A stretch of 62,721 nt of DNA from Sluysia triapertura (taxonomy: Eukaryota), in the NCBI GenBank assembly GCA_046118255.1, contig JBJNIA010000010.1, positions 62,001-124,721 on the forward strand. Direction: 5' to 3'. A model generated the notes under the pieces. The model was not told where the DNA came from. It made no database searches and saw only the letters and a program-made list of their open reading frames with translations. Shown here piece by piece: positions 36,824 through 60,764 of the stretch. Position 1 is the stretch's first letter; each line of letters starts with the position of its first letter. Position numbers and translations under genes: made by a program.

Positions 36824-38590
36824 ATGAAAATTAACAAAATTGAGTTTTTAAAATATCTTAAATGTTCAAGATTATCTTGATTGGAACATAAGAATCAAGA
36901 AAATATAGAGAATTTTAAAAAATATGATTTAAATTGAAAAGATTTTAAAGAACTTACACAGAATTTTAGTGATGAAGAATTAGATGAAGAGGGATGTCAA
37001 AAATTTTTTAATCCAGAGGATATAGAAACAGCTGATGGTATAGAAATAGGTAATTTAGCTGTAAAATATTTTGAATTAAAATATGGAAAAGAAAATTGTT
37101 ATAACTACAAAAATATTTTCAAACCCATTAATTTAGATAATTTTAAGAATAAAAAAATTATTTTTGAGCCATTATTTGAAATCGAAAATGCCTCAACAAG
37201 ATTAGATGTATTAATAAATTTAGGTAATAACAATTGAGAATTTGTCGAAGTTAAATCTAAATCTTATCCTTCCGAATTGCATGGATGAGATGTATCTTAT
37301 CAAATGTATCTTTTAGAAAAATTAAAAATTAATATCAAAAAAAAATCTTTAATGTTTATTAATGGAAATTATATATCTGATGGGGTAAATGATTATGAAA
37401 CTAATCTAGAAAAGCTAACAAAACTCTTTTGTTTTAGTGATTATCTTTACAAAGATAAACATAAGTTACAACGCGAAGAACCAATAATGAGCATTGATGC
37501 ATTTTATAATGATAAAAAATCTTATATACAACAATTTATTGCTGAAGCTGTTGAGGAATTTAAATTATTAAAAGAGCCATCTGATTTGAAAAAGAGTGTA
37601 TCTTCTAAATGCGGTTTTTTAGGAGATTGTAAGTTTAGAAAATATTGTATTAAAAATTTTCAAAATATAGATGATTATCGCATGTCAGTATATGCCTTAG
37701 GATTTGGTGGCAATAGTAAGCTTAAAAATAGATTAATAAATGAAAAAATATTTTTAACAAAAGATTTAGATACCGAGGCACTAGAAATAATTGAAGAGGC
37801 AAGACAAAAAGCAGTTCAAGAACACAAAAAAGATTTTTTACCTGCAATAATATACGATTTGGTTATGCACAATGAAAAAGAATATATTAACATTCATGAA
37901 ATCAACTATTTATTAACTAATAAATGAAAATATCCTATTTATATGCTTGATTTCGAAGCCTCTGCATGAGCAGCTCCTAAAATACCAAATACTAAGCCTT
38001 ATGAACAAGTTCCTTTTCAATATAGCTTGCACATTATTAAGGATGCAAATTTTGATTACTTAACTAATTGTAATTTAGATCATAAAGAATATTTATATGA
38101 CTTTAATAACTCCGAAAATATAATCATTCAATTTGCTACAAGCCTAGTTAATGATTTATATCAAACCGAAGGAACAATATTAGCTTATTACAATTCATAT
38201 GAGAAAAGAATTATTAAATTTGTTAGCAATCAATGTAAAGAATTACAGAGATATGATCTAGCAGAAAAGTTGGATACATTATATTCTCGTGTTGAGGATC
38301 TTTGAGATATTTTTGAATGTCATTATTATTTTAATATTGACTTCGAAGGTAGAACCTCAATCAAAGTGGTTTTACCTGCATTAGATGGTTCTTTTTCTTA
38401 TAAAAATTTAGTAATTAACAATGGTAAAGCAGCATTAGATGTTTTTAAATATTTTTATAAACAAAAAATTAATAATACTTTTGAAGAAAATAAATGAAAT
38501 ATAACTAAAAAGCAATTATTAGAATATTGTAAATTAGATACTTTAGCTATGGTTGTTATTTTTAAAAAAATGCAAAATTTAATAAAATAA
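36824..38590 (+). CDS. DUF2779-type protein: PD-(D/E)xK nuclease plus DEDD/RNase H-like domain
   Basis: RLDVL...EVKS...DVSYQ; CGFLGDCKFRKYC; LDFEA...PYEQVPFQYSLH; LEYCKLDTLAM. Confidence 0.85.
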
Positions 38591-38594
38591 GCAT

Positions 38595-39980
38595 ATGCAA
38601 AATTTAAAAAAAGGCTTTTCCAAAAATAAAAATTTAACAGTAAAAACTTTTTTTAAAGATATATTATTTCCTAAGGTCTCTTTTGCAGGAAATAAACATT
38701 TCTTTTCATTTAGTGAGATTATCTTTGATATTTTATTAGTTGCCTCATTACGAGAAATTGTAAAAGAAATAAATTTCGATTTCTATAGTTATTCGGCAGT
38801 ATATTTATTTCAAACCATTGCATTAATTACACTGTTCTTAAATATATTATTTATTTGATTTTTTTATATGTACTATACACAATGATTTGAAAAAAAAGAT
38901 ATTACCTCCAGGTTTATGTTTTTAACACTTTTCCTAACTATGTCATTTCTAGTGTTTTCTATTTACTTAGATGCTATAAATGTACAACTAGGAAGTTTTA
39001 GTGCTACATTAATTAATTCAATTGCTATATGTCTAGTTTTTTTAAATTTGTTATTAATTTTTTATTTCTCCGTTAGAATGTCTATTCGATTAAATAAAGA
39101 ATTAAAGAATTTTTTTAGATTAGCTTTTTATTTATGATTTTTAATCATTTTAATTTTTTTATTCGAAACATTTTTTATTAAATATTACAATAATCAAGAA
39201 AGTTGAGTTGTTCCTATTTCATTATTGATAGCTCAAATAGTTTCTTTTATCTTATGCTGCATAATTGTTTTTAATTGATCAAGCAAAAAACATAAAAATT
39301 TAATAATTCCTTTTGATAATAATCATATTAAGGGTAGATTTTTTGTTTTAATAAATATTTGTTTAGCAGAAGCAATGATCTCTATTTTTGAAGTCTTCAT
39401 CCAAGAAAATTTTTTTACTAATGAAAATATTGATAGCTCTGGGATAGTACAAGTAGTTTTAGGGCTTATATTTTGTTTTTTAATAGTATTTTTGTTGTGA
39501 AGTATATATGTTGATCGTGTAAGTATGATTAAATTTAATTCTAAAAAAGAACTCTCTAGAATATTTATATTCGGGAATTTATTATTGATTGTCAGTTTTA
39601 TTTTTATATCTAAAGGAATGTCTGATACCTTACAAAATTTAATATATTATTCTGAATTTGATAAATTACAACATCAAGAAACTGGAATTATATTATGAGG
39701 TAGTTCAACATTTTTAATTGGAATTTCTATCTTTTCTAATACTTCAAAATATGTTTTTTCTTTTCAAAAAACTTCTATTGTAATGAGTAAAAAAATCCCA
39801 TGACTATTTAGAGCAGATTCAATTACTGGGGCATTTTTAATAGTATTAATTGGGGCAATTACTTCTATGTATTGAGATCCATTATCATCAATTCTAATTA
39901 TTTTTGTTGTGTTATCTCTTTTAATGATATCAACATGAACAACATGAAGTAAACTATACAAAAACACTTTATATAAATAA
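38595..39980 (+). CDS. polytopic membrane protein, LtrA (low temperature requirement A)-like
   Basis: SEIIFDILLV resembles the LtrA ELFFDLVFV motif; many TM segments; 461 aa. Confidence 0.6.
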
Positions 39981-41684: not shown

Positions 41685-42132
41685 AAGCTTGGCATTTATC
41701 TTGTCAATAGTAATTGCGTTAGTGGGTTTTTCCTTCACAGTTATTTTGATTGTTAATTGTTTTTATAGCAACGATTCAACATTAGCAATTAATAAAATTG
41801 CTAAGTATTATATTTTCGGCAATTATGGTGTTTATCAAAATATGGATATATTTCATATTAAAACTGTGGTATTAAATTGAATTGATACAAATGCAGTAGG
41901 TAAATTTTTATTTGCCATCATATGTTGTATAATTTCAATTTACTATTTAAAATTCTCAATCAAAGGAACAATTTTCTGTTCAATTTTAGAATTAATTATA
42001 GGAATTTTATTATTGGTGTTTATATTTTGACCAATAGCTATTTTAATCATTGTCTTAGCCATTCTAAAATTATCAACATATAGATTTAGTAAAAAATATA
42101 CTCCTAGAAAAAATGATCATAAAGATAATTAA
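41659..42132 (+). CDS. hypothetical membrane protein
   Basis: 157-aa hydrophobic ORF with AAGGA SD. Confidence 0.65.
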
Positions 42133-42175
42133 TTTTTATAATTTTTTATTCATTTAATTGGTAATATATATTAAT

Positions 42176-43975
42176 ATGGATATAAAATTTATAAGAAATT
42201 TTTGTATTATCGCTCACATTGACCATGGCAAAAGTACTTTGGCAGACAGAATTTTACAAATTTGTCATGATTGAAAAAGTGTTAAAAACGCTCAATTATT
42301 AGATGATATGGAATTAGAGAAAGAACGCGGTATTACAATCAAATTAAATGCAGTACAACTTAAGTATTTAGATAAAAGAACTAATACTTATTATTTGCTT
42401 CATTTAATTGATACTCCGGGCCATGTAGATTTTAGTTATGAAGTTTCAAGAAGTTTAGCTGCTTGCGAAGGAGCTATTCTTGTTGTAGATGCTAGTCAAG
42501 GTGTGCAAGCCCAAACGATTTCTAATGTTTATTTAGCTTTAGAAAATAATTTAGAAATTATTCCTGTTTTAAATAAGGTTGATTTGCCAGCATCTGAACC
42601 AGAGAAAGTTAAAAAGGAAATAGAAAACATCATTGGTTTAAATTGTGAAAATGCCCCTTTAATTAGTGCAAAAACTGGTTTAAATATTAACAAGGTTTTT
42701 GAGGCCATTATTGATCAAGTTCCTCCACCAACCGGCGATAAAAATAATAAATTACAAGCCTTAATATTTGATAGCTACTATGATAATCATCGTGGTGTCA
42801 TTATTTCTATTTGTGTTAAAGAAGGAAAAATTAAACTAAATGATGAAGTATTTTTAATGAATAGTAAATTTAGTTTTATTGTAAGAGAAGTTTTTATTAA
42901 AGATCCTGAATTAATTAATAAACAACAACTAGAAGCTGGAGAAGTAGGACTAATATCTGGAAATATTAAACAAATTTCAGATATAAATATTGGTGATAGT
43001 ATTACTTTAAAAAGTAACCCTGCAGATCAACCATTAAAAGGTTATAGAAAATTGCAACCAAATGTGTATGCTGGATTATTTCCTATAGACCGAAGCGATT
43101 ATGATAAGTTAAAAGAAGCATTAGAAAAATTGAAATTAAATGATTCAAGTTTACTATACGAACCTGAAGTTTCAGATGCCCTAGGATTTGGTTTTAGATG
43201 TGGGTTTTTAGGATTATTACATGCCGATATCATTCAAGAAAGACTTGAAAGAGAATATAATTTAAACCTAATTACTACATCACCGAATGTTGTATATGAG
43301 GTTATCACAACTAAAAATGAAAAATTAATAATTGATGGACCCAATAAACTTCCACCTATTCAACAAATAAAAGAAATATTCGAACCTTTTACAATAACTA
43401 AGATAATAACACCTAACGAATACATAGGTCCTTTAATGCAATTATGTACAGATGCTAGAGGAATATATAGAGAAATGGTGTATATCGATGATACAAGGCA
43501 AATGTTAGTATTTGAAATTCCATTGCAAGAAATAATTTATGATTTTTTTGATAAATTAAAATCATTATCAAAAGGGTATGCTTCTTTTGAATATGAAATT
43601 ATTGAATATAGACCAAATAAATTAGTTAAAATGGATATTTTATTAAATGGCGAGCAAGTAGATGCATTAAGTATCATCATTCATAAAGATAAGGCTTATT
43701 ATCGCGGTAGAGAAATTTGTGAAAAATTAAAAGATATAATTCCCAAAAAACAGTTTGAAATAGCAATCCAAGCTGCCATAAACCATAAAATAATTGCTCG
43801 TGAAACAATTTCTGCATATAGGAAAAATGTTCTAGCTAAATGTTATGGTGGAGATATTTCTAGAAAGAAAAAGCTTTTAGAAAAACAAAAAGAAGGTAAA
43901 AAACGCATGAAATCTGTAGGAAATGTTGATATTCCACAAGATGCTTTCTTAACAATTTTAAAAACAAATAAATAA
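42176..43975 (+). CDS. lepA: elongation factor 4 (LepA)
   Basis: [42 protein letters not shown]. Confidence 0.98.
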
Positions 43976-44044
43976 AAGTGGACTTATTTCCAAAAATATT
44001 TACAATACAAATGTGATCTTTATAAAAATAAATATAAATATCAC

Positions 44045-44283
44045 AGAAAAGCCATTTTCGTTTCCTTTGTTACATAAGTGAACTCCTTGTTTGTATGTTA
44101 TTATCTATAAATTCTATTAATTCATAATTTTTGTTCATTTTGTTCAAAAATAAATCAATCTATTTAGAAATAATTTAAATAGTTTGTATTAAAGGTTTTA
44201 ATAAATTTTCTCTTTCAATTTCGTTTAATTTGTTTTTTTGGTGGTGGTTTTTTAATGAGGGTCTTTTATGACCCTCATTTTTA
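44045..44283 (+). ncRNA. candidate regulatory small RNA (5' end approximate)
   Basis: 376-bp gap in a gene-dense genome; 5'/3' closing stem, internal hairpins, anti-SD/anti-AUG segments, strong terminator. Confidence 0.5.
44254..44283 (+). terminator. intrinsic terminator
   Basis: AATGAGGGTC-TTTTAT-GACCCTCATT perfect 10-bp stem followed by T-run on the + side only. Confidence 0.85.
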
Positions 44284-44351
44284 TTAATCTCTATAATAAA
44301 AAGCTTCATAATGTAGTAAAATAATAGTATAAAAATGGATTAGGACAAAAT

Positions 44352-45731
44352 ATGGATTATGATTTTTTATTAGGTTCAGTTTATGATAAAAAAGCTTACT
44401 TAACATATACAGAAAATAATTATTTTAGTAAGGAAGAAGTTGCCAAAACCATGGGCGGGCAATCTTCAGAATCAATTTGGTTAAATATTACTAAACATCG
44501 TAGTAAATTATTTAACTATTTGCCCATAAGATCTTTTGTTTCAAGATCTTTAAATGAGAAAAGTAATTTAAAATATTTTTTACCAAGTTGTATTTTAAAA
44601 AAACTTAATAAAGTTAATGAACTAACACAAAGTTTAAACACTTCTATTTTAATAAGAAAAATTATAAGTAATGAGGATAAAAAATTATTTACAGATCTAA
44701 AAAATTTTGATACTCAGTGTTTATATGATGAAATTTCTTCAATAATAGGGTCATATAACTCTTCTATATCTAAAGAAGATTATTTTAATTTAATAAATAA
44801 AAATGATGAAAACTCAGTGTTTTCAAATAAAACTGATAGATTTATATATGGTTTAAACAGAGTTATTGGATCCATGAATATAAATGTTTCCTTTGATAGT
44901 AAATTGATTCAATCATGAAATAAAATCTTATTTGGTAATAGCTTAAGCCCTTTACGAAATAAAAAAGTAGTTAATTCGAATGACAATAGTTCATACGGAT
45001 ATCCATATGATGTTGTATCATCAACATTTGAAGAACTATGTAATTTTATAAATGATAAATATAATTACTTGCCAATAGTTAGATTAGCTGTAGTTTTGTC
45101 TGTTTGTAGATTAGGAATATTATTTGAAAACAAAGTAAATGACATCTTTTCATTATTGTGTTTTTATTATGTTCTAAATCAACATTTCAATATTCTTTTT
45201 CCATGCTTAACAATTGCATCAACAATAATTCAAAATTATAGTGAAAAAATATCTACTTCTTTTAAAAATGTTTTAAAAAATGAAGGAGATATAAACTATA
45301 TTATTAATGTTTTATTAGATATTTTTGATACTAATCTTACTAAACTAGATTATTCATTGAATAATGAATGTTCTTTTAGTAACTATTTTTCATTTAATAA
45401 AAAACATGAAATTAGCAAAGAATCTGACACCAAAAAACAACAATCTACTGCAATTCATAAACACAAAAATCAAATTCAAGAAGCTTTTTACATCTTATTA
45501 AAAAAATATCCTGATATTACTAGAAAACAAGCTTGGTTTTTTGCAAACCACTGTGAACAGGATTTTAATTACACAATTAAGGATTTTGAGGTTTTTAATA
45601 AAAGTTGCCAAGAAACAGCTAGATATAGTTTTGAAAATTTAATTAAAATTGGTTTGTACAAAAAAGTAAAAATAAGTAAAAAATTTGTATATCAAGCACA
45701 AAAAACATTAGATAATATAATAAAAGGATAA
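44352..45731 (+). CDS. degenerate Fic-domain protein with C-terminal winged HTH
   Basis: Fic-like spacing (LR..V...YP...FEELCNFIN...PIVRLA) with the catalytic motif replaced by ILFENKVND; C-terminal TIKDF...ETARYSFENLIKIG. Confidence 0.65.
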
Positions 45732-45737
45732 TACTAA

Positions 45738-46364
45738 ATGAAATCATGATTAAAAAATTGTTTTAAAAAAAATAAAAGTGAGCAACATATAGATAATGTT
45801 GTTGAACAAGATGCATCATTTGAAGTGATGCAAAACACAACTCCAATAAAAATTGAAAAATGAACTTCTAACATTTCTAACAAAACAGAAACCAAGCCAA
45901 GCATTTTTACTAAAAAATCTAATAAAACTAAAATTCAAGGTAATAACACAATGACAGGATATGAGGATTCTTATAATCCTTCCATAAATATTAATCCTGG
46001 ATTAAAAGATGAATCTCAATTAAATAGAGAAAACATGAAGGTTGAAGACATAAAACCAGGGTATATTAATAATTTACCTAATCAAGAATTTTCTAGCCAA
46101 AAACCCAATATTAATTCAGAAAAAACTAAAAAACGAGAATCTTATATTAGTAACATCAAAAACCTAGTTAATGATGAAATTATTTATAATAATGTATTAA
46201 AAAATAATGACAATACCATTGAAAAGGAAATAGTTCCTGATACAAAAAAACATAACAAACCAATCGCTAAACCAATTAAAAAAGAATATAGTAATCCTGG
46301 AAGTAAATATTTAGAAAAACAAGAAAATAAATCAACTCAAATAAATTCTGAAGAAAAAGAATAA
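45738..46364 (+). CDS. hypothetical low-complexity K/N/E-rich protein (208 aa)
   Basis: Open frame from ATG 45738 under code 4, after AAGGA. Confidence 0.7.
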
Positions 46365-46432
46365 GTATTACCATAGTTTAAAATTTATTTAATTTTTTAT
46401 TGATATTTTTATTCTTATAAGATAATTAAACA

Positions 46433-47539
46433 ATGAATTCTTTTAATAAATCAACTAATGCCGAGCATTTATATATTCACATACCATTTTGTAAAAGAGT
46501 ATGTGATTATTGCGATTTTTATAAAATAGATAGTTCTAAAATAAAACCTGATTATTGTTTATTCACAAAGAAATTGTTAGAAGAATTAGATAGTTGAAAT
46601 TTCTTAAATAAGGTTCAAACAATTTATATTGGGGGAGGGACTCCCAATTCTTTACCTAGTAAATATTTAGCACAAATATTATTAGCAATAAAGAATAAAT
46701 TCCCTTACAAAATCAAAGAATTTTCTATGGAATTAAATCCTGAATTAATTACTTTATCAAAAATTAAAATTTTGAAAAAATATAATGTTAATCGAGTGAG
46801 TGTCGGAATTCAATCGACTAACAAAAAAATTCTTTTTTCTGTAAATAGAAATAATGGTAATAATTTGAGAAATAAATTGAATCTAATAAAAAATAATTTT
46901 AGTAATTTTTCTTTTGATTTTATATACAATTTGCCATTTCAAACTAAAAAGGATATAGAAAATGACATAAAATTAATTTCTTTATATAATCCCCATCATA
47001 TTTCTTGATATAGCCTAATTTTGAAAGAAAATACCCCATTATGAGAAAGAAATTACTTTATAAATAATGATTTGGATTATTTGTATTGAAAAGTAGTTAG
47101 CAATAAATTAAAAAAAATGCATTATAAAAACTATGAAATTAGTAACTTTTGTAAATATAAGAAATTTCAAAGCTTACATAATAGAGCATATTGATGATCA
47201 AAAGAGTGAATCGCAATTGGTCCTAGTGCCTGCGGTTTTTATTATGATAATGATAAAGGCGAATATTGTTATCAAACAAATTCAAAAAATGTTTATGCTT
47301 GAAAAGCAAATATTAAAGTAATGACTCAAGAAGAAGTATATTTTCAAAAAATAATGATGGGTTTAAGATTAGTGGAGGGTGTTAAGTTAAAGCAAGAATT
47401 TTCAAATCTTCCAGAGAAATACCAAACAGGTATAAATAGAAACATTGAATCAAAGCTATTAAAATGAAATAAAGAGTATTTACAAACAACAAGAAAAGGG
47501 TTTTTATTATTAAATGATGTTTTAGAATTTTTAGTCTAA
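46433..47539 (+). CDS. hemW: radical SAM heme chaperone HemW family
   Basis: LYIHIPFCKRVCDYCDF, IYIGGGTP, YEISNF. Confidence 0.9.
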
Positions 47540-47602
47540 ATAATTTTTTTTTGATAAAATTAATGTTGATTTATCTAAATCAAAATAATATTAAAGGGTA
47601 GG

Positions 47603-48922
47603 ATGCATATTAATATGGAAATTATTAAAAAGCGTGATGGATTAAAATCTATTGAAATTAAAAAAGATTTATATTGGGTAGGTGAAGAAGATCACGATTT
47701 ATCAGTTTTTGACATAGTCATGGTTACTAAATACGGAACTAGCTATAACTCTTATATTTTAAAAGGAGAAAATGGCGCAGTTTTGTTTGAAACTGTTAAA
47801 GTTGCTTATTTTGATGAATATATTCAAAAAATTAACCAAATTGTCGGAAGTATAAAAGACATTAAATATATTGTTATGAACCACACAGAGCCAGATCATG
47901 CAGGGTGTATTGAAAAAATATTGGAATTAAATCCAAATATAATTGTTGTAGGAACTAGTTTTGCATTAAAATTTTTAAAAGAAATAACTAACAATCAAAA
48001 TTTTATTAGTCATCCAATTGATGAAAAAATTCAAATTTCTAACTATGATATGTTTCCATACAAGGTTGTAGAGGACAAAGCAACAATAAGTCTTGGTAAT
48101 TACACACTTAAATTTATTAGCGCTCCTTATTTACACTGACCAGATTCAATGTTTACATATGTAAAAGAAATGAAGACTTTATTTACATGTGATGTATTTG
48201 GTTCACATTATGCATTTGATGGTGTTTTAATGTCAAAACTACCAACAGATCAAGTAGAAAAATACTGAGATTCATGTAAATATTATTATGATTGTATTTT
48301 TTCTCCATTTAAAAAATACGTTTTAGAAGCAATTGATAAAATTAAAGATTTAGATTATGAATTAGTTTGTGTTGGTCATGGTCCTGTATTAGATAAAGGT
48401 ATCAAGGATGTTGTTAAAAAATACGTTGAATGATCAACTGATCCTGTTCAAAAAGATAAAAAAATAGTAATAGTATCATGTTCTGCATATGGTTTTACAA
48501 CAACAATGGCAGAGGGTATTATTGCAGGTATTAAATCTGTTAATGAGTATGTTAAAATTAACCATTATAATATTGATGTACTTAACTACGGAAAACAAAA
48601 AGGTCAGATTCTAGAAGATATTTACTCAGCTCATGGGGTAATGTTTGGAACACCAACAATTAATGGTGACGCACTTCCTATAATTTGAGATTTATTAATT
48701 AATTTAAGTCCTGTAGTGCATAAAAATAAAGTAGCTGCCGCATTTGGTTCATTTGGATGATTTGCCGCCGGAGTAGTATTTGTAGAGCAAAGACTAAATC
48801 AATTACATATGAAAGTTATGCCAGGTTTAAGAGTAAACTTTAAACCATCAGAAGAGCAAATGAAAGTATGTACTACATATGGTGTAAATTTCATGAATGC
48901 AATTAATGAAAAATTTAAGTAA
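47603..48922 (+). CDS. fprA: flavodiiron protein (FprA; O2/NO reductase family)
   Basis: GTSYNSY, HTEPDH, LH(W)PDSM, TCDVFGSH, GHGP, flavodoxin domain SAYGFT...FGSFGW; start may be 47615. Confidence 0.93.
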
Positions 48923-50998: not shown

Positions 50999-51070
50999 AA
51001 ACAGCCTTATTTTTAATTATTAATTATATTTTATCTTAAAATAGCCTTATTTTTAAATACTATTTTGCTA

Positions 51071-52255
51071 CTAAAAAATATTCTTATTTATAATAAATAA
51101 TTCATATCCTGTGCATATAACTTTCTTATTAAACTTATTATTCATATCTTGCAAAATTTTTTTAATTTTAGGATTTACATTTTTAGTGTAAACCTCAGAA
51201 TTTTCAAATTTAATATTATTAATTGATGCTCCAACTAATCGATATACTTTATCGGGATCATAAATAAAATTTAACAATTCTTTAGCTTTATTTTGTAATT
51301 CTTCTAATGATTTGAAACAATTTTTATTTGTAAAATGCTTATTCTTTTGCTTAAAATTATTATCTTTCAAGTATATTGAAAAAGAATAAATTTGAACATT
51401 TCAATTCAAGCAACTATCATAAACCACTTTTATATGTTGAGATAAATGATTTAATATATCTTTTTTATTAGATGTTTTATGCATAAAAGTATCAGAGCTA
51501 CTAATTGATTTAGGAAAGTTATTGTTATACTCTATATTGGATATATTCTTAATGGAAAAATCATTCTTTATCGATTCTAATCTATCACCTAAAATTTCTA
51601 TAAGTTTTTTTTGATTAGATTCTTGAAATAAATCTTCTATTAATAATAAATTATTAGTTTTTAAAACTTCATTAGTTTTCGTTCCAATGCCGATAATTTC
51701 ATTAATTTTTAATTTATAAAATTTTTCAACTACATCATTTTCATTTTCAATTATTGTTATTCCATTAGGTTTTTGATAATTACTAGCCATTTTCGCTAAG
51801 CTTTTATTTCATGCAATCCCGATGCTCACTGTAATATCTAATTTTTCTTTAATAGTTTTTTGTACATTTTTTGCCAAATAATATGGCGTTTTGTATTTTT
51901 TTATTAGCAAATTACAGTCAACATAACATTCATCGATTGATGCGATTTCGATTTTTCTTGTAAATTCATTTTTTATTATTTCAAAAAAATGTCGAGAAAC
52001 CTCACTATATCGTTCATAATTACTTTTGATAGATATCATATTAGGACATAATTTAAACGCTTTAAAAAGCGGCATACCTGCATGTATACCGTATTTTCTA
52101 GCTTCATAGCAACATGTACAAACTACCCCTCTTTTAATATCACCATCTATAACTCCACCAATTACTACTGGTTTATCTTTTAACTTAGGGTTTCATTTTT
52201 TTTCTAATTGCGCAAAAAAAGCATTTATATCAATATGCATTACTATATTATTCAT
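51071..52255 (-). CDS. dinB: DNA polymerase IV (Y family)
   Basis: HIDINAFFA, YEARKYG, SIDECY, KMAS..QKPNG. Confidence 0.93.
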
Positions 52256-53064: not shown

Positions 53065-54732
53065 CTATTTAATAATTTCTTTTATTTTTTTTAAGAAAAG
53101 ATCATGCTCTATATTATTTTCATCATAAGATATATGTTTAAAATTTAATCCTACACTATGTAAATTAGTTAAATTAGAAAATTCTTTTTTTAAATGTAAA
53201 TATAAACCGGTTTTTTCAAAATTTTCTTCTACAACATATATATTTTTATAATTCATTAAAGATTTAAGGATTACTTCCTTATCAAATTTATTTAAAAATA
53301 TAGCGTTTAAAATGTTTATTGGAGATCCATTAATAAAGATTTCATTCATACACTCAATAAAAGCATTACCATAACTTATTATTAAAGTGCTACTAAGATT
53401 ATTAGAATTAAATAACTTTCAGTTATCGATTTTTTTAAAATTAGAATGATTTGTATCTAAAAGTGGTTTCTTAAATTTTTCTGTTCTAATAAACAAGGTC
53501 TGCTCTTCTTCTAAATAATTTTTTAATAATTCTTGGTACTCTTCTTCATTAGAAGGATGTGCAATAATAACATTTGGAATAGCTTCTATTAAAAAATTTA
53601 AATCAAAAAGTCCTTGATGGCTTGCCCCATCCGAACCAACTAAACCACAATTCTGAATATTAATGCATATAGGTAACTTTAATCTAGAAACATCGTGTAT
53701 TATTTGATCAAATGTTCTTTGTAAGAATGTACTATACATCAAAATTAAGACTTTATTTCTTTCTTTAACTAAACCACACGCCATTAAAACAGCTAACTCT
53801 TCACTTATTCCTACATCATATATTTGATGATTAAAACCTTTAATATTACTTAAACCACTTCCTATAAATGTTCCAGGACATATAATTTTATTATTACTAT
53901 TGTTATTTAAATAGAAAATTAAGGAATCTCTAATTATAGAAGATCATTTTATATTTTCACTATTAGATTCTTTTAATGAATGAAAATCTCCCGCCACATC
54001 TATATAGTCAAAATCATTATGAAATCCCTTTGTTGTTTTTATATGAATCAAGACATTGTTTTTGTATTTTTTCACTTTATTGAAAACTTGAATTAATTGA
54101 TGGATATTATGGCCATCATTAATTTTTATATATTTAATTCCAGAAGATTTAGCCAAATCACTAACATTATTTTTCTCCAATGCTATTGCCCCAACAGTTG
54201 GTGAAATAGACATTTGATTATCATTAATCACTATAATATGATTTTTAGAATTAGATAAATTCTTTAATTGCATAAGTGACTCAAGATTAATACCATTTAT
54301 AAAGGAAGCATCACCAATTACAGAAATAATTTTCTTTCAATTTTTGTTTAAACTATACCCTATAGCATATCCAAGAGAAGTACCCGCGTGCCCAGCATCT
54401 AAATGGTCATATTCACATTCTTCAAATGATTGAAAGCCGGAAATACCATTTTCTTTTCTTAAATTATTAAATTTGTTTATTCTATTAGTTAATATTTTGT
54501 GAGTATAAGCTTGATGGCCAATATCAAATAATAATTTATTTTCTTTTAAATCAAAGACATGGTGTAAAGATAATGTTATTTCGATAATTCCTAGATTACT
54601 AGATAAATGTCCACCAGTTTTCTTGATTGATTGAGTTAAAAAGTTTCTAATTTCGTTACTTAAATCTATTAAATCTTTTTCAGATAATTTAGAAAGCATA
54701 TCATAACTAAAATTTTGCTCTAAAATATTCAT
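53065..54732 (-). CDS. dxs: 1-deoxy-D-xylulose-5-phosphate synthase
   Basis: GGHLSSNLG, DIGHQAYTHKILT, GHAGTS, NDNQMSI, YSTFLQR, DGASHQG. Confidence 0.93.
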
Positions 54733-59687: not shown

Positions 59688-60764
59688 ATGAAAAATCATC
59701 GTGAAACTACTAGACAAGTAAAAGTCGGTAATCTAATTATTGGCGGCAGAAATAAAGTTGTCATACAAAGTATGACAACCACTAAAACCAAGGATTGAGA
59801 AAATACATTAAAACAAATTGAAGAATTACACAAAAATGGTTGTGAAATAGTTAGGGTTGCTATTTTAGATGAAGAAGATGCTAATGCATTGAAATATGTT
59901 ACTAAATTAAGTCCAGTACCAATAGTAGCAGACATCCACTTTAAGCATGATTTAGCCTTACTAGCTATCAAAAATGGTGTTTCTAAAATTAGAATTAATC
60001 CTGGAAATATTGGTTCTAAAGAAAAAATTATTGAAGTTGTGGAAGCTTGTAGAAGCAAAAATATCCCAATAAGAATAGGGATAAATGCTGGAAGTTTGCC
60101 AAAACATATATTTAATAAATACGGTATGACTTCAGAAGGACTAATTGAAGCTGCTAAAGAAAATGTACAAATTCTAGAGGATTTAAATTTTTTTAATTAT
60201 ATTCTTTCAATCAAAACTACTGATCCTTTAATTGCAATAGATGCATATACTAAAGCATCAAAATTATTTAAATGCCCTCTTCACTTAGGAATAACAGAAT
60301 CAGGTAGTTTACTGAGAGGCTCTGTTAAATCATCATATGCACTTGGTAGATTATTAGAAAATGGTATTGGCGACACTATGAGAATATCATTAAGCTGTGA
60401 CCCAGTAAACGAAGTATTGGTAGCTAAAGAAATTCTAGGTATATTGAATTTATCAAACAAAGTTTATCCTAAATTAATTTCGTGCCCAACTTGCGGAAGA
60501 ATTCAATATAACATGTTTCCAATTGTTGAAGAAATTGAAAAATTTTTGAATGTTATTGAAGGTAAAGTTAAAGTAGCTATTATGGGTTGTGTTGTTAATG
60601 GTATCGGTGAAGCACAAGATGCTGATATAACTGTAGTTGGATCATATAAAAAAGGTCTAATTTATGTAGATAAAAAACTTATTAAAATAGTTCCAGAGCC
60701 TGAAATAGTTAAAGAATTAAAACAAATTATTCTACATTATTTAGAAAATAAATCCGGCAATTAA
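59688..60764 (+). CDS. ispG: 4-hydroxy-3-methylbut-2-en-1-yl diphosphate synthase
   Basis: [40 protein letters not shown]. Confidence 0.97.

Follow-up and report, generated by a model that had tools for sequence, protein, structure and literature searches.

In the 62,721-nt stretch of Sluysia triapertura DNA analysed here (GenBank assembly GCA_046118255.1, contig JBJNIA010000010.1, positions 62,001 to 124,721; hereafter the window, numbered from its first nucleotide), the genes lepA and hemW enclose an open reading frame (ORF) for a protein of 459 amino acids (aa), which combines a Fic fold devoid of its catalytic motif with a C-terminal winged helix and which is preceded by a short direct repeat. 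The window belongs to a mollicute that reads TGA as Trp, with in-frame TGA codons and full-length genes under translation table 4. With the ORFs of the interval called under this code, lepA (ending at 43975) is followed by 376 nt of intergenic DNA, the 459-aa ORF, a 6-nt gap, a 208-aa ORF and hemW (starting at 46433), confirming the 459-aa protein and the ORF 6 nt behind it that an initial annotation, made from the sequence alone, had described. The features are:

42176..43975, + strand: lepA (EF4), with Pfam GTP_EFTU and LepA_C; upstream context
44268..44297, + strand: possible promoter of the pseudo-Fic gene (10/12 consensus)
44314..44329, + strand: direct repeat TAGTA-N6-TAGTA with an 11-bp period, the operator of the pseudo-Fic protein as predicted from promoter conservation
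44352..45731, + strand: pseudo-Fic protein with a winged helix-turn-helix (wHTH), 459 aa, consisting of an N-terminal helical domain, the Fic core, a low-confidence linker (residues 348–370) and the winged helix
45117..45152, + strand: degenerate Fic active-site loop, residues 256–267, without His and without GNGR
45462..45701, + strand: winged helix, residues ~371–450, with a near-invariant recognition helix
45738..46364, + strand: 208-aa K/N/E-rich ORF, likely disordered, for which no homologue was found (searches below)
46433..47539, + strand: hemW, with Pfam Radical_SAM and HemN_C; downstream context

As a single query, the 459-aa protein returned nothing useful from Pfam, NCBIfam or the sequences of the Protein Data Bank (PDB). 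A homologue search matched it to 316 representatives, and a profile built from 30 homologues matches solved Fic proteins (4rgl, E 3.5e-13; 8cil, E 3.2e-10). The predicted model (mean predicted local distance difference test score, pLDDT, 86.8) aligns in VIA-align at Z 23.3 to 8cil, 23.1 to 4rgl and 21.4 to 7xux, within a range of 20.8–23.3 over CbFic2, Dde_2494, CccR and SoFic and with a Foldseek E of 2.8e-8; the C-terminus of the model (residues 371–450) aligns with winged-helix regulators or wHTH chains at Z 8–9. Profile and model alignment both place a Fic (Fido) helical fold in the protein, and model alignment and secondary structure a C-terminal winged helix, so that the earlier designation as a pseudo-Fic-wHTH protein was apt.

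The catalytic motif HPFx[D/E]GN[G/K]R is absent, HPF occurring in 0/87 aligned full-length homologues: the His column is occupied by K, R or Q, and other residues, many of them acidic, stand in place of the GNGR stretch. In the same alignment, 17 columns of at least 90% identity fall in the winged helix versus three in the Fic core, and the recognition-helix residues E421, R424 and S426 are invariant (87/87). At the inhibitory helix, (S/T)xxxE(G/N), the family profile aligns an E, the motif not being evident in the window protein or in many rows. Catalysis, judged by the absence of the motif, appears to be lost, and, to go by the profile and the model, the 459-aa protein is a Fic protein of long standing that is inactive as an enzyme and ends in a DNA-binding domain; its dead core may serve as a scaffold for oligomerisation or partner binding. 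The regulator with a dead Fic domain envisaged by the initial annotation is supported by the fold, the loss of the motif, the near-invariant recognition helix and the co-conserved repeat described below.

The class II Fic-wHTH proteins CbFic2 (8CIL), SoFic (3EQX/3ZCN) and Dde_2494 (4RGL) share domain order and fold with the 459-aa protein; they keep HPFxxGNGRxxR and (de)AMPylate, unlike the pseudo-Fic protein, which lacks the motif. For CbFic2, the excerpted text of PMC10628234 reports no sequence-specific DNA site. A precedent is CccR of Yersinia pseudotuberculosis (PDB 7XUX), a Fic-HTH protein that represses its own promoter (PMC9755527), with the same Fic core and C-terminal HTH (Z 21.4). 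CccR is also linked to cell division, and both own-promoter repression and such a link are predicted for the pseudo-Fic protein; CccR is, however, an active, secreted AMPylase of FtsZ, whereas the pseudo-Fic family is without the catalytic His and encoded by a chromosomal core gene.

One family member of 217 aa (L100:1099-1752, in genome G349; G and L numbers are our labels for genomes and loci) keeps the N-terminal domain and the winged helix with most of the Fic core gone, and its promoter carries many TAGTA repeats. L099 (G369), cut by the contig end, is probably a similar short member lacking most of the Fic core.

The family was sampled by a scan of GTDB, which yielded 435 confirmed stretches, 80 of which were kept for analysis; a scan of metagenomes gave one locus. 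The kept stretches are titled as uncultured Bacilli (including Enteromonas, Enterosoma and Onthovivens, which we take to belong to the order RFN20) and as Mycoplasmatales metagenome-assembled genomes (MAGs); locus L053 was excluded because its code was mis-assigned. The adjacent upstream gene is lepA in 56/71 loci with enough flank, and hemW lies within 800 nt downstream in 64/74, 42 of these having room for a small ORF and 21/64 a gap to hemW below 60 nt; hrcA-grpE-dnaK often follow further downstream. The gene was found in 48/399 class-level genomes (E <= 1e-25; one match weak and partial) and in 21/398 genomes of the order Mycoplasmatales (19 strong), and it is single-copy, syntenic and not patchy within its clades. 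It is an ancient, long-inherited neighbour of lepA and hemW, and not part of the new module, inserted as 2.4 kb of DNA, that had been proposed. Within the ORF, one public sequencing run shows five strain variants, all synonymous; two contigs of this run cover 42000–44914 and 44997–48000 collinearly, and the run is a possible source of the window itself.

The repeat at 44314–44329 lies 22 nt before the start of the pseudo-Fic gene, overlapping or just past its likely promoter. Scored as TAGTA-N6-T[AG]GT[AT] with a pattern that allowed N4–7 spacers, it occurs at 56/77 family promoters compared with 5/491 other gene starts in the same loci, and the half-site spacing in the family promoters peaks at 11 nt. 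It is retained at loci with a gene other than lepA upstream, accompanies the pseudo-Fic gene in two orders and is present in 11/19 Mycoplasmatales-type loci. Taking G001, G007 and the window together, 9/22 exact pairs with an N6 spacer are intergenic, versus 3/46 with spacers of N3–5 and N7–9. A 30-bp palindromic form of the site is rare (2/401, one of them within an ORF). It is the repeat, not the palindrome or the RNA considered further below, that co-occurs with the pseudo-Fic gene; to follow a gene across orders and changes of neighbour is the usual signature of autoregulation, and the winged helix likely recognises the repeat in its own promoter. As read from the sequence, the locus would hold an uncharacterised pseudoenzyme regulator with a predicted operator.

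The window has one other intergenic pair:

51058..51073, - strand: TAGTA-N6-TAGTA, 60 nt before the start of nfo (endonuclease IV), in the 72-nt gap between a dinB-like gene and nfo

A DNA-repair regulon governed through this site was considered and rejected, since 0/22 nfo upstream regions of relatives carry the pair. Separately, G001 and G004 have several intergenic pairs upstream of lipoprotein-like or surface-protein paralogues.

In RFN20-type Bacilli, the repeat recurs beside the chromosome dimer-resolution site dif. Strict matches outside the own promoter in G403, G404 and G405 mostly cluster in one AT-rich region between convergent genes, which holds a dif-like site, and few other repeat sites exist genome-wide in G402–G405. 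The dif pattern, started from a consensus, matched 219/401 class genomes, mostly once; the dif of G403 lies ~22 kb from the point opposite dnaA. For the regions flanking dif, 48 genomes with the gene, 46 of which have sufficient sequence on the right, were set against 31 genomes without the full gene, the latter set consisting of the first 30 loci returned and G464. A strict pair on one side, <=300 nt from dif, is found in 40/46 gene-bearing versus 0/31 gene-lacking genomes. In the former it has a fixed offset and orientation, right of dif in 42/46 and left in 8/47, and the farther flanks hold four pairs in 102 kb. The pair separates the two groups, whereas half-site density alone does so poorly (median 3 vs 2); half-sites that point opposite ways to the left and right of dif occur also in gene-lacking genomes and were not used as evidence.

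Between dif and the pair, a DnaA-box-like word (scored by a consensus) is present in 33/46 genomes, 12–31 nt before the pair in 29 of them. In an alignment of 20 sequences, dif, the DnaA-box-like word and the repeat pair are the only conserved blocks; they form a fixed cassette, in which ~90 nt separate dif from the DnaA-box-like word and ~20 nt this word from the pair. The role of the cassette in these Bacilli may be structural, since its region is without a protein-gene promoter in the loci examined: the complex could organise the terminus, help dimer resolution or decatenation, or be titrated as the terminus is copied, perhaps in concert with DnaA or with the factors of dimer resolution and decatenation. 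Gyrase and topoisomerase IV are known targets of active Fic enzymes. At the parE/gyrB promoters of five RFN20-type genomes, no pair was found (10/10).

Some observations stand apart from this comparison. Of the 31 gene-lacking genomes (dif flanks L315–L344), 12 carry, on the side of dif where the pair would lie, a DnaA-box-like word facing the other way, so that small-genome Bacilli may commonly have a DnaA box close to dif. At L417 (G043:C1:10708-10723), a gyrB/parE-like gene has a pair ~100 nt before it, and a DnaA-box-like word is close by. The 648-kb single contig of G007 has no DnaA match above the Pfam cut-off, yet a clear skew switch near 350–360 kb; a candidate terminus cluster of repeats in this genome was dropped, as it lies within a coding ORF.

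In basal Mycoplasmatales, the repeat appears at division genes. Of 23 loci from gene-bearing genomes, 10 have a pair no farther than ~280 nt from the start of mraZ or rsmH, versus 1/26 loci from genomes without a match to the gene (three control loci without an ORF call were excluded), and in G015 a triple repeat directly precedes ftsZ. MraZ is a regulator of the mycoplasma division cluster; like the pseudo-Fic repeat, its site is a direct repeat that heads the mraZ/rsmH-ftsZ cluster, but its fold is unrelated, and Pfam finds no MraZ domain (PF02381) in the 459-aa protein. MraZ was not found in G001, G004, G034, G007, G015, G043 or G086. Division-cluster sites occur both where it was not found (G001, G004, G034, G007 and G015) and where it is present (G013, G066 and G003), and a simple replacement of MraZ was rejected because sites also lie beside extant mraZ genes. 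The role retained in this branch would be transcriptional control of the pseudo-Fic gene itself and of the mraZ/rsmH-ftsZ division cluster.

Upstream of rsmH in G001, G002, G004 and G034 (L207–L210), a leader of ~190 nt contains two repeat pairs, inverted relative to each other, and a pairing outer stem. It has no Rfam match; it may function as a looped operator or else fold as a structured RNA.

On balance, it seems probable, with considerable room for doubt, that the pseudo-Fic protein binds the repeat in its own promoter, represses its own gene and acts at the dif-side and division-gene repeats of its relatives. The winged helices of two protomers would sit on the repeat in head-to-tail order, spaced by one helical turn, and occupancy of a site that overlaps the promoter would repress the gene. 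Several observations weigh against this reading. The window protein has Q420 at a column that is Tyr in 86/87 homologues. No exact repeat is found in 8/19 Mycoplasmatales-type loci, and the own promoter is without an exact pair in G001, G004, G034 and, weakly, G002. TAG being a stop codon, words of this kind are biased towards intergenic DNA. The nfo-side pair is not conserved. The terminus and division-cluster evidence comes from the genomes of relatives, the present organism being represented by the window, and no dif-plus-repeat cassette was found in G001, G007 or the window. The 10 division-cluster matches amount to about five independent lineages, and 13 loci, including G403–G405, are without a division-cluster pair. 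Finally, gene-bearing and gene-lacking genomes in the dif comparison also differ in lineage, a confounding factor, so that another clade-specific protein could bind the repeat.

The last point leads to a rather unlikely alternative, namely that the TAGTA pair is read by some other DNA-binding protein present throughout the clade, with the pseudo-Fic gene as just one of its targets and the pseudo-Fic protein as a non-specific binder of DNA or of partners. Besides the confounding, known Fic proteins lend it some weight: CbFic2 binds random DNA with nanomolar affinity (PMC10628234), and the site of the symmetric Fic-HTH dimer CccR is an inverted repeat whose halves are 26 bp apart, unlike the 11-bp direct repeat to which the pseudo-Fic family is tied. 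However, the repeat accompanies the gene in two orders and persists beside it where the upstream neighbour is another gene, and an invariant recognition helix matches an invariant site.

We hold it to be very improbable that the protein acts just locally, as a self-regulator within the lepA-hemW-hrcA-grpE-dnaK operon segment, the dif and division sites being unrelated or incidental. The short gaps to hemW are compatible with translational coupling, hrcA-grpE-dnaK come next in many loci, and G007 has few other conserved targets of the repeat; nevertheless, the contrast at dif, with its fixed offset and orientation, is hard to call incidental.

Starting from self-repression and action at the distant repeats, one may go a step further, to a proposal that we put forward tentatively and doubt more than we believe: the retired Fic protein could be a cell-cycle coupling factor of RFN20 Bacilli and basal Mycoplasmatales, its occupancy of the phased repeat beside dif and a DnaA box shifting as the terminus is copied. 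By also binding this repeat in front of its own gene and at the division cluster, it would link completed replication to division. In reduced, mycoplasma-like lineages from which the dif cassette was lost, and in some from which MraZ was lost, it would live on as a regulator of the division operon.

Fork traps offer a different comparison for the dif-side sites. RTP, a winged-helix protein, and Tus each have a further binding site at the gene that encodes them. The RTP/ter system of B. subtilis and the Tus/ter system of E. coli have bipartite sites near dif, as in the RFN20-type relatives; fork traps nonetheless comprise opposed groups of sites on both sides of the terminus (PMC13220808), whereas the RFN20-type genomes mostly have one pair on one side of dif, for which reason a fork trap is a poor match.

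The ORF downstream of the pseudo-Fic gene bears on another suggestion of the initial annotation, a domesticated toxin–antitoxin locus in which the pseudo-Fic protein and the 208-aa ORF (or the RNA) are ex-toxin and antitoxin. FicTA modules are common, and the 6-nt gap suggests co-translation. FicTA modules nevertheless have a catalytically competent Fic toxin, whereas the motif is missing from all 87 homologues, and a conserved antitoxin gene adjoining the toxin, whereas here the downstream slot is filled in relatives by unrelated small or membrane ORFs. The gene is, moreover, single-copy and inherited within its clades, and we give this suggestion next to no credence. The 208-aa ORF has no match in Pfam, NCBIfam or searches at near or greater length (shorter forms were not searched), in keeping with its earlier description as an orphan. 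Together with the RNA-like unit upstream, it is a lineage-specific passenger.

The intergenic region between lepA and the pseudo-Fic gene, which contains no + strand ORF above 35 aa, comprises the following:

43979..44006, + strand: possible small-RNA promoter, weak (9/12 consensus)
44011..44286, + strand: candidate pyrimidine-rich small RNA of ~275 nt, from its fold compared with shuffles
44012..44045, + strand: inverted repeat (the palindrome), 13-nt arms with one mismatch and an 8-nt gap
44254..44286, + strand: intrinsic terminator with a 10-bp stem and a U tract

The initial annotation saw here a circuit in which the RNA pairs with ribosome-binding site (RBS) regions, including that of the pseudo-Fic gene, and in which the pseudo-Fic protein controls the RNA through the palindrome. 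A structured RNA is in part borne out. In addition to the terminator, the segment 44011–44250, which excludes it, folds at z -2.58 (2/100 shuffles as good; z -5.19 with the terminator), and a minus-strand transcript folds less well (z -1.82) and has no terminator. Promoter-like matches in the region are not above shuffles (24 vs a mean of 30.3). The window RNA has only sub-threshold Rfam matches, with no family at gathering score, and ARAGORN detects no transfer-messenger RNA (tmRNA). The inverted repeat exists as described; a role as an operator is not supported, as it was not seen at homologous promoters. It starts where the weak promoter would place the transcription start and reads as the 5′ hairpin of a transcript, which is more likely than a conserved operator.

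The anti-initiation part of the claim fared worse. The words CCAUUUUC, UUUCCUUU, CUCCUU and UUCAUUUU are present in the upstream region, but none of six counts of anti-AUG and anti-Shine–Dalgarno words exceeds dinucleotide shuffles (p 0.078–0.756). In pairing with the window RNA, the downstream start ranks 9/52 and 194/460 shuffles do as well, while the mean pairing to all 52 starts is matched by 4/60 shuffles. Trans-acting anti-RBS small RNAs share with the window RNA an intrinsic terminator of their own, and differ from it in seed complementarity above chance.

Nor was a co-occurrence of RNA and palindrome with the gene confirmed, the gap between lepA and the gene being below 170 nt in most homologues, which leaves no room for an RNA. 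Four Mycoplasmatales MAGs have a conserved unit of ~250 nt after lepA (L002:5680-5935, also in L004, L005 and L026), composed of a promoter, a 5′ hairpin, which differs from the palindrome and stands in its place, a U-rich core and a terminator, with ~52% U and 4–7% G. Column identity in this unit is 82%, the neighbouring Fic proteins being 61–81% identical; it belongs to no Rfam family (the L002 element has sub-threshold matches) and may itself be a new small RNA. Between this unit, which comes from distant relatives (a close relative of the window's organism was not found), and the window RNA, no homology was detected: a profile of the relatives’ RNA gave no nhmmer hit in the window intergenic region, and 31–271/300 shuffles score as well. 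Covariation is not above the control (116/500 shuffles), and the G001 RNA ranks its own Fic leader 11/635 by duplex energy and 63/635 by best helix.

The promoter–hairpin–terminator unit at the same place in four relatives makes a discrete small RNA at 44011–44286 plausible, and such an RNA is a possible candidate; an anti-RBS function is unsupported. The circuit as a whole, for which the terminator and fold, the relatives’ conserved unit, the G001 rank by duplex energy, the mean pairing and, among known proteins, the widely spaced inverted repeat bound by CccR can be cited, is improbable in view of the seeds at chance level, the pairing ranks, the missing homology and covariation, and the short gaps of most homologues.

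If correct, binding of the repeat by the pseudo-Fic protein would clearly exemplify a Fic enzyme that lost catalysis and was retained to bind DNA, and would add a conserved regulator, shared by basal Mycoplasmatales and RFN20-type relatives, with a defined site of 16 bp. Only four transcription factors are described as conserved across Mollicutes groups, HrcA, MraZ, WhiA and YebC, in PMC5138195, in the main text of which neither TAGTA nor TACTA occurs; its supplements and transcription factor tables, which this does not cover, could bear on novelty. Literature searches, supplements not covered, found no paper on the pseudo-Fic family or its repeat site. The cassette of dif, DnaA box and repeat points to an undescribed organisation of the terminus in wall-less, small-genome Bacilli; the small-RNA and toxin–antitoxin parts of the earlier reading add little. 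The present analysis adds the Mycoplasmatales branch, the gene-lacking control, the phasing of the DnaA box and the division-cluster sites.

Elsewhere in the window, the genes at 127–1254, 53065–54732, 59688–60764 and 47603–48922 indicate a fairly unreduced metabolism for a mollicute that reads TGA as Trp; they include a flavodiiron protein gene and, presumably, dxr, dxs and ispG of the non-mevalonate isoprenoid route (read by eye). At 36824–39980, a DUF2779 nuclease-like gene is followed by an LtrA-like membrane gene, and a DUF2779 gene also stands before fmt and lepA in L002, L004, L005 and L026.

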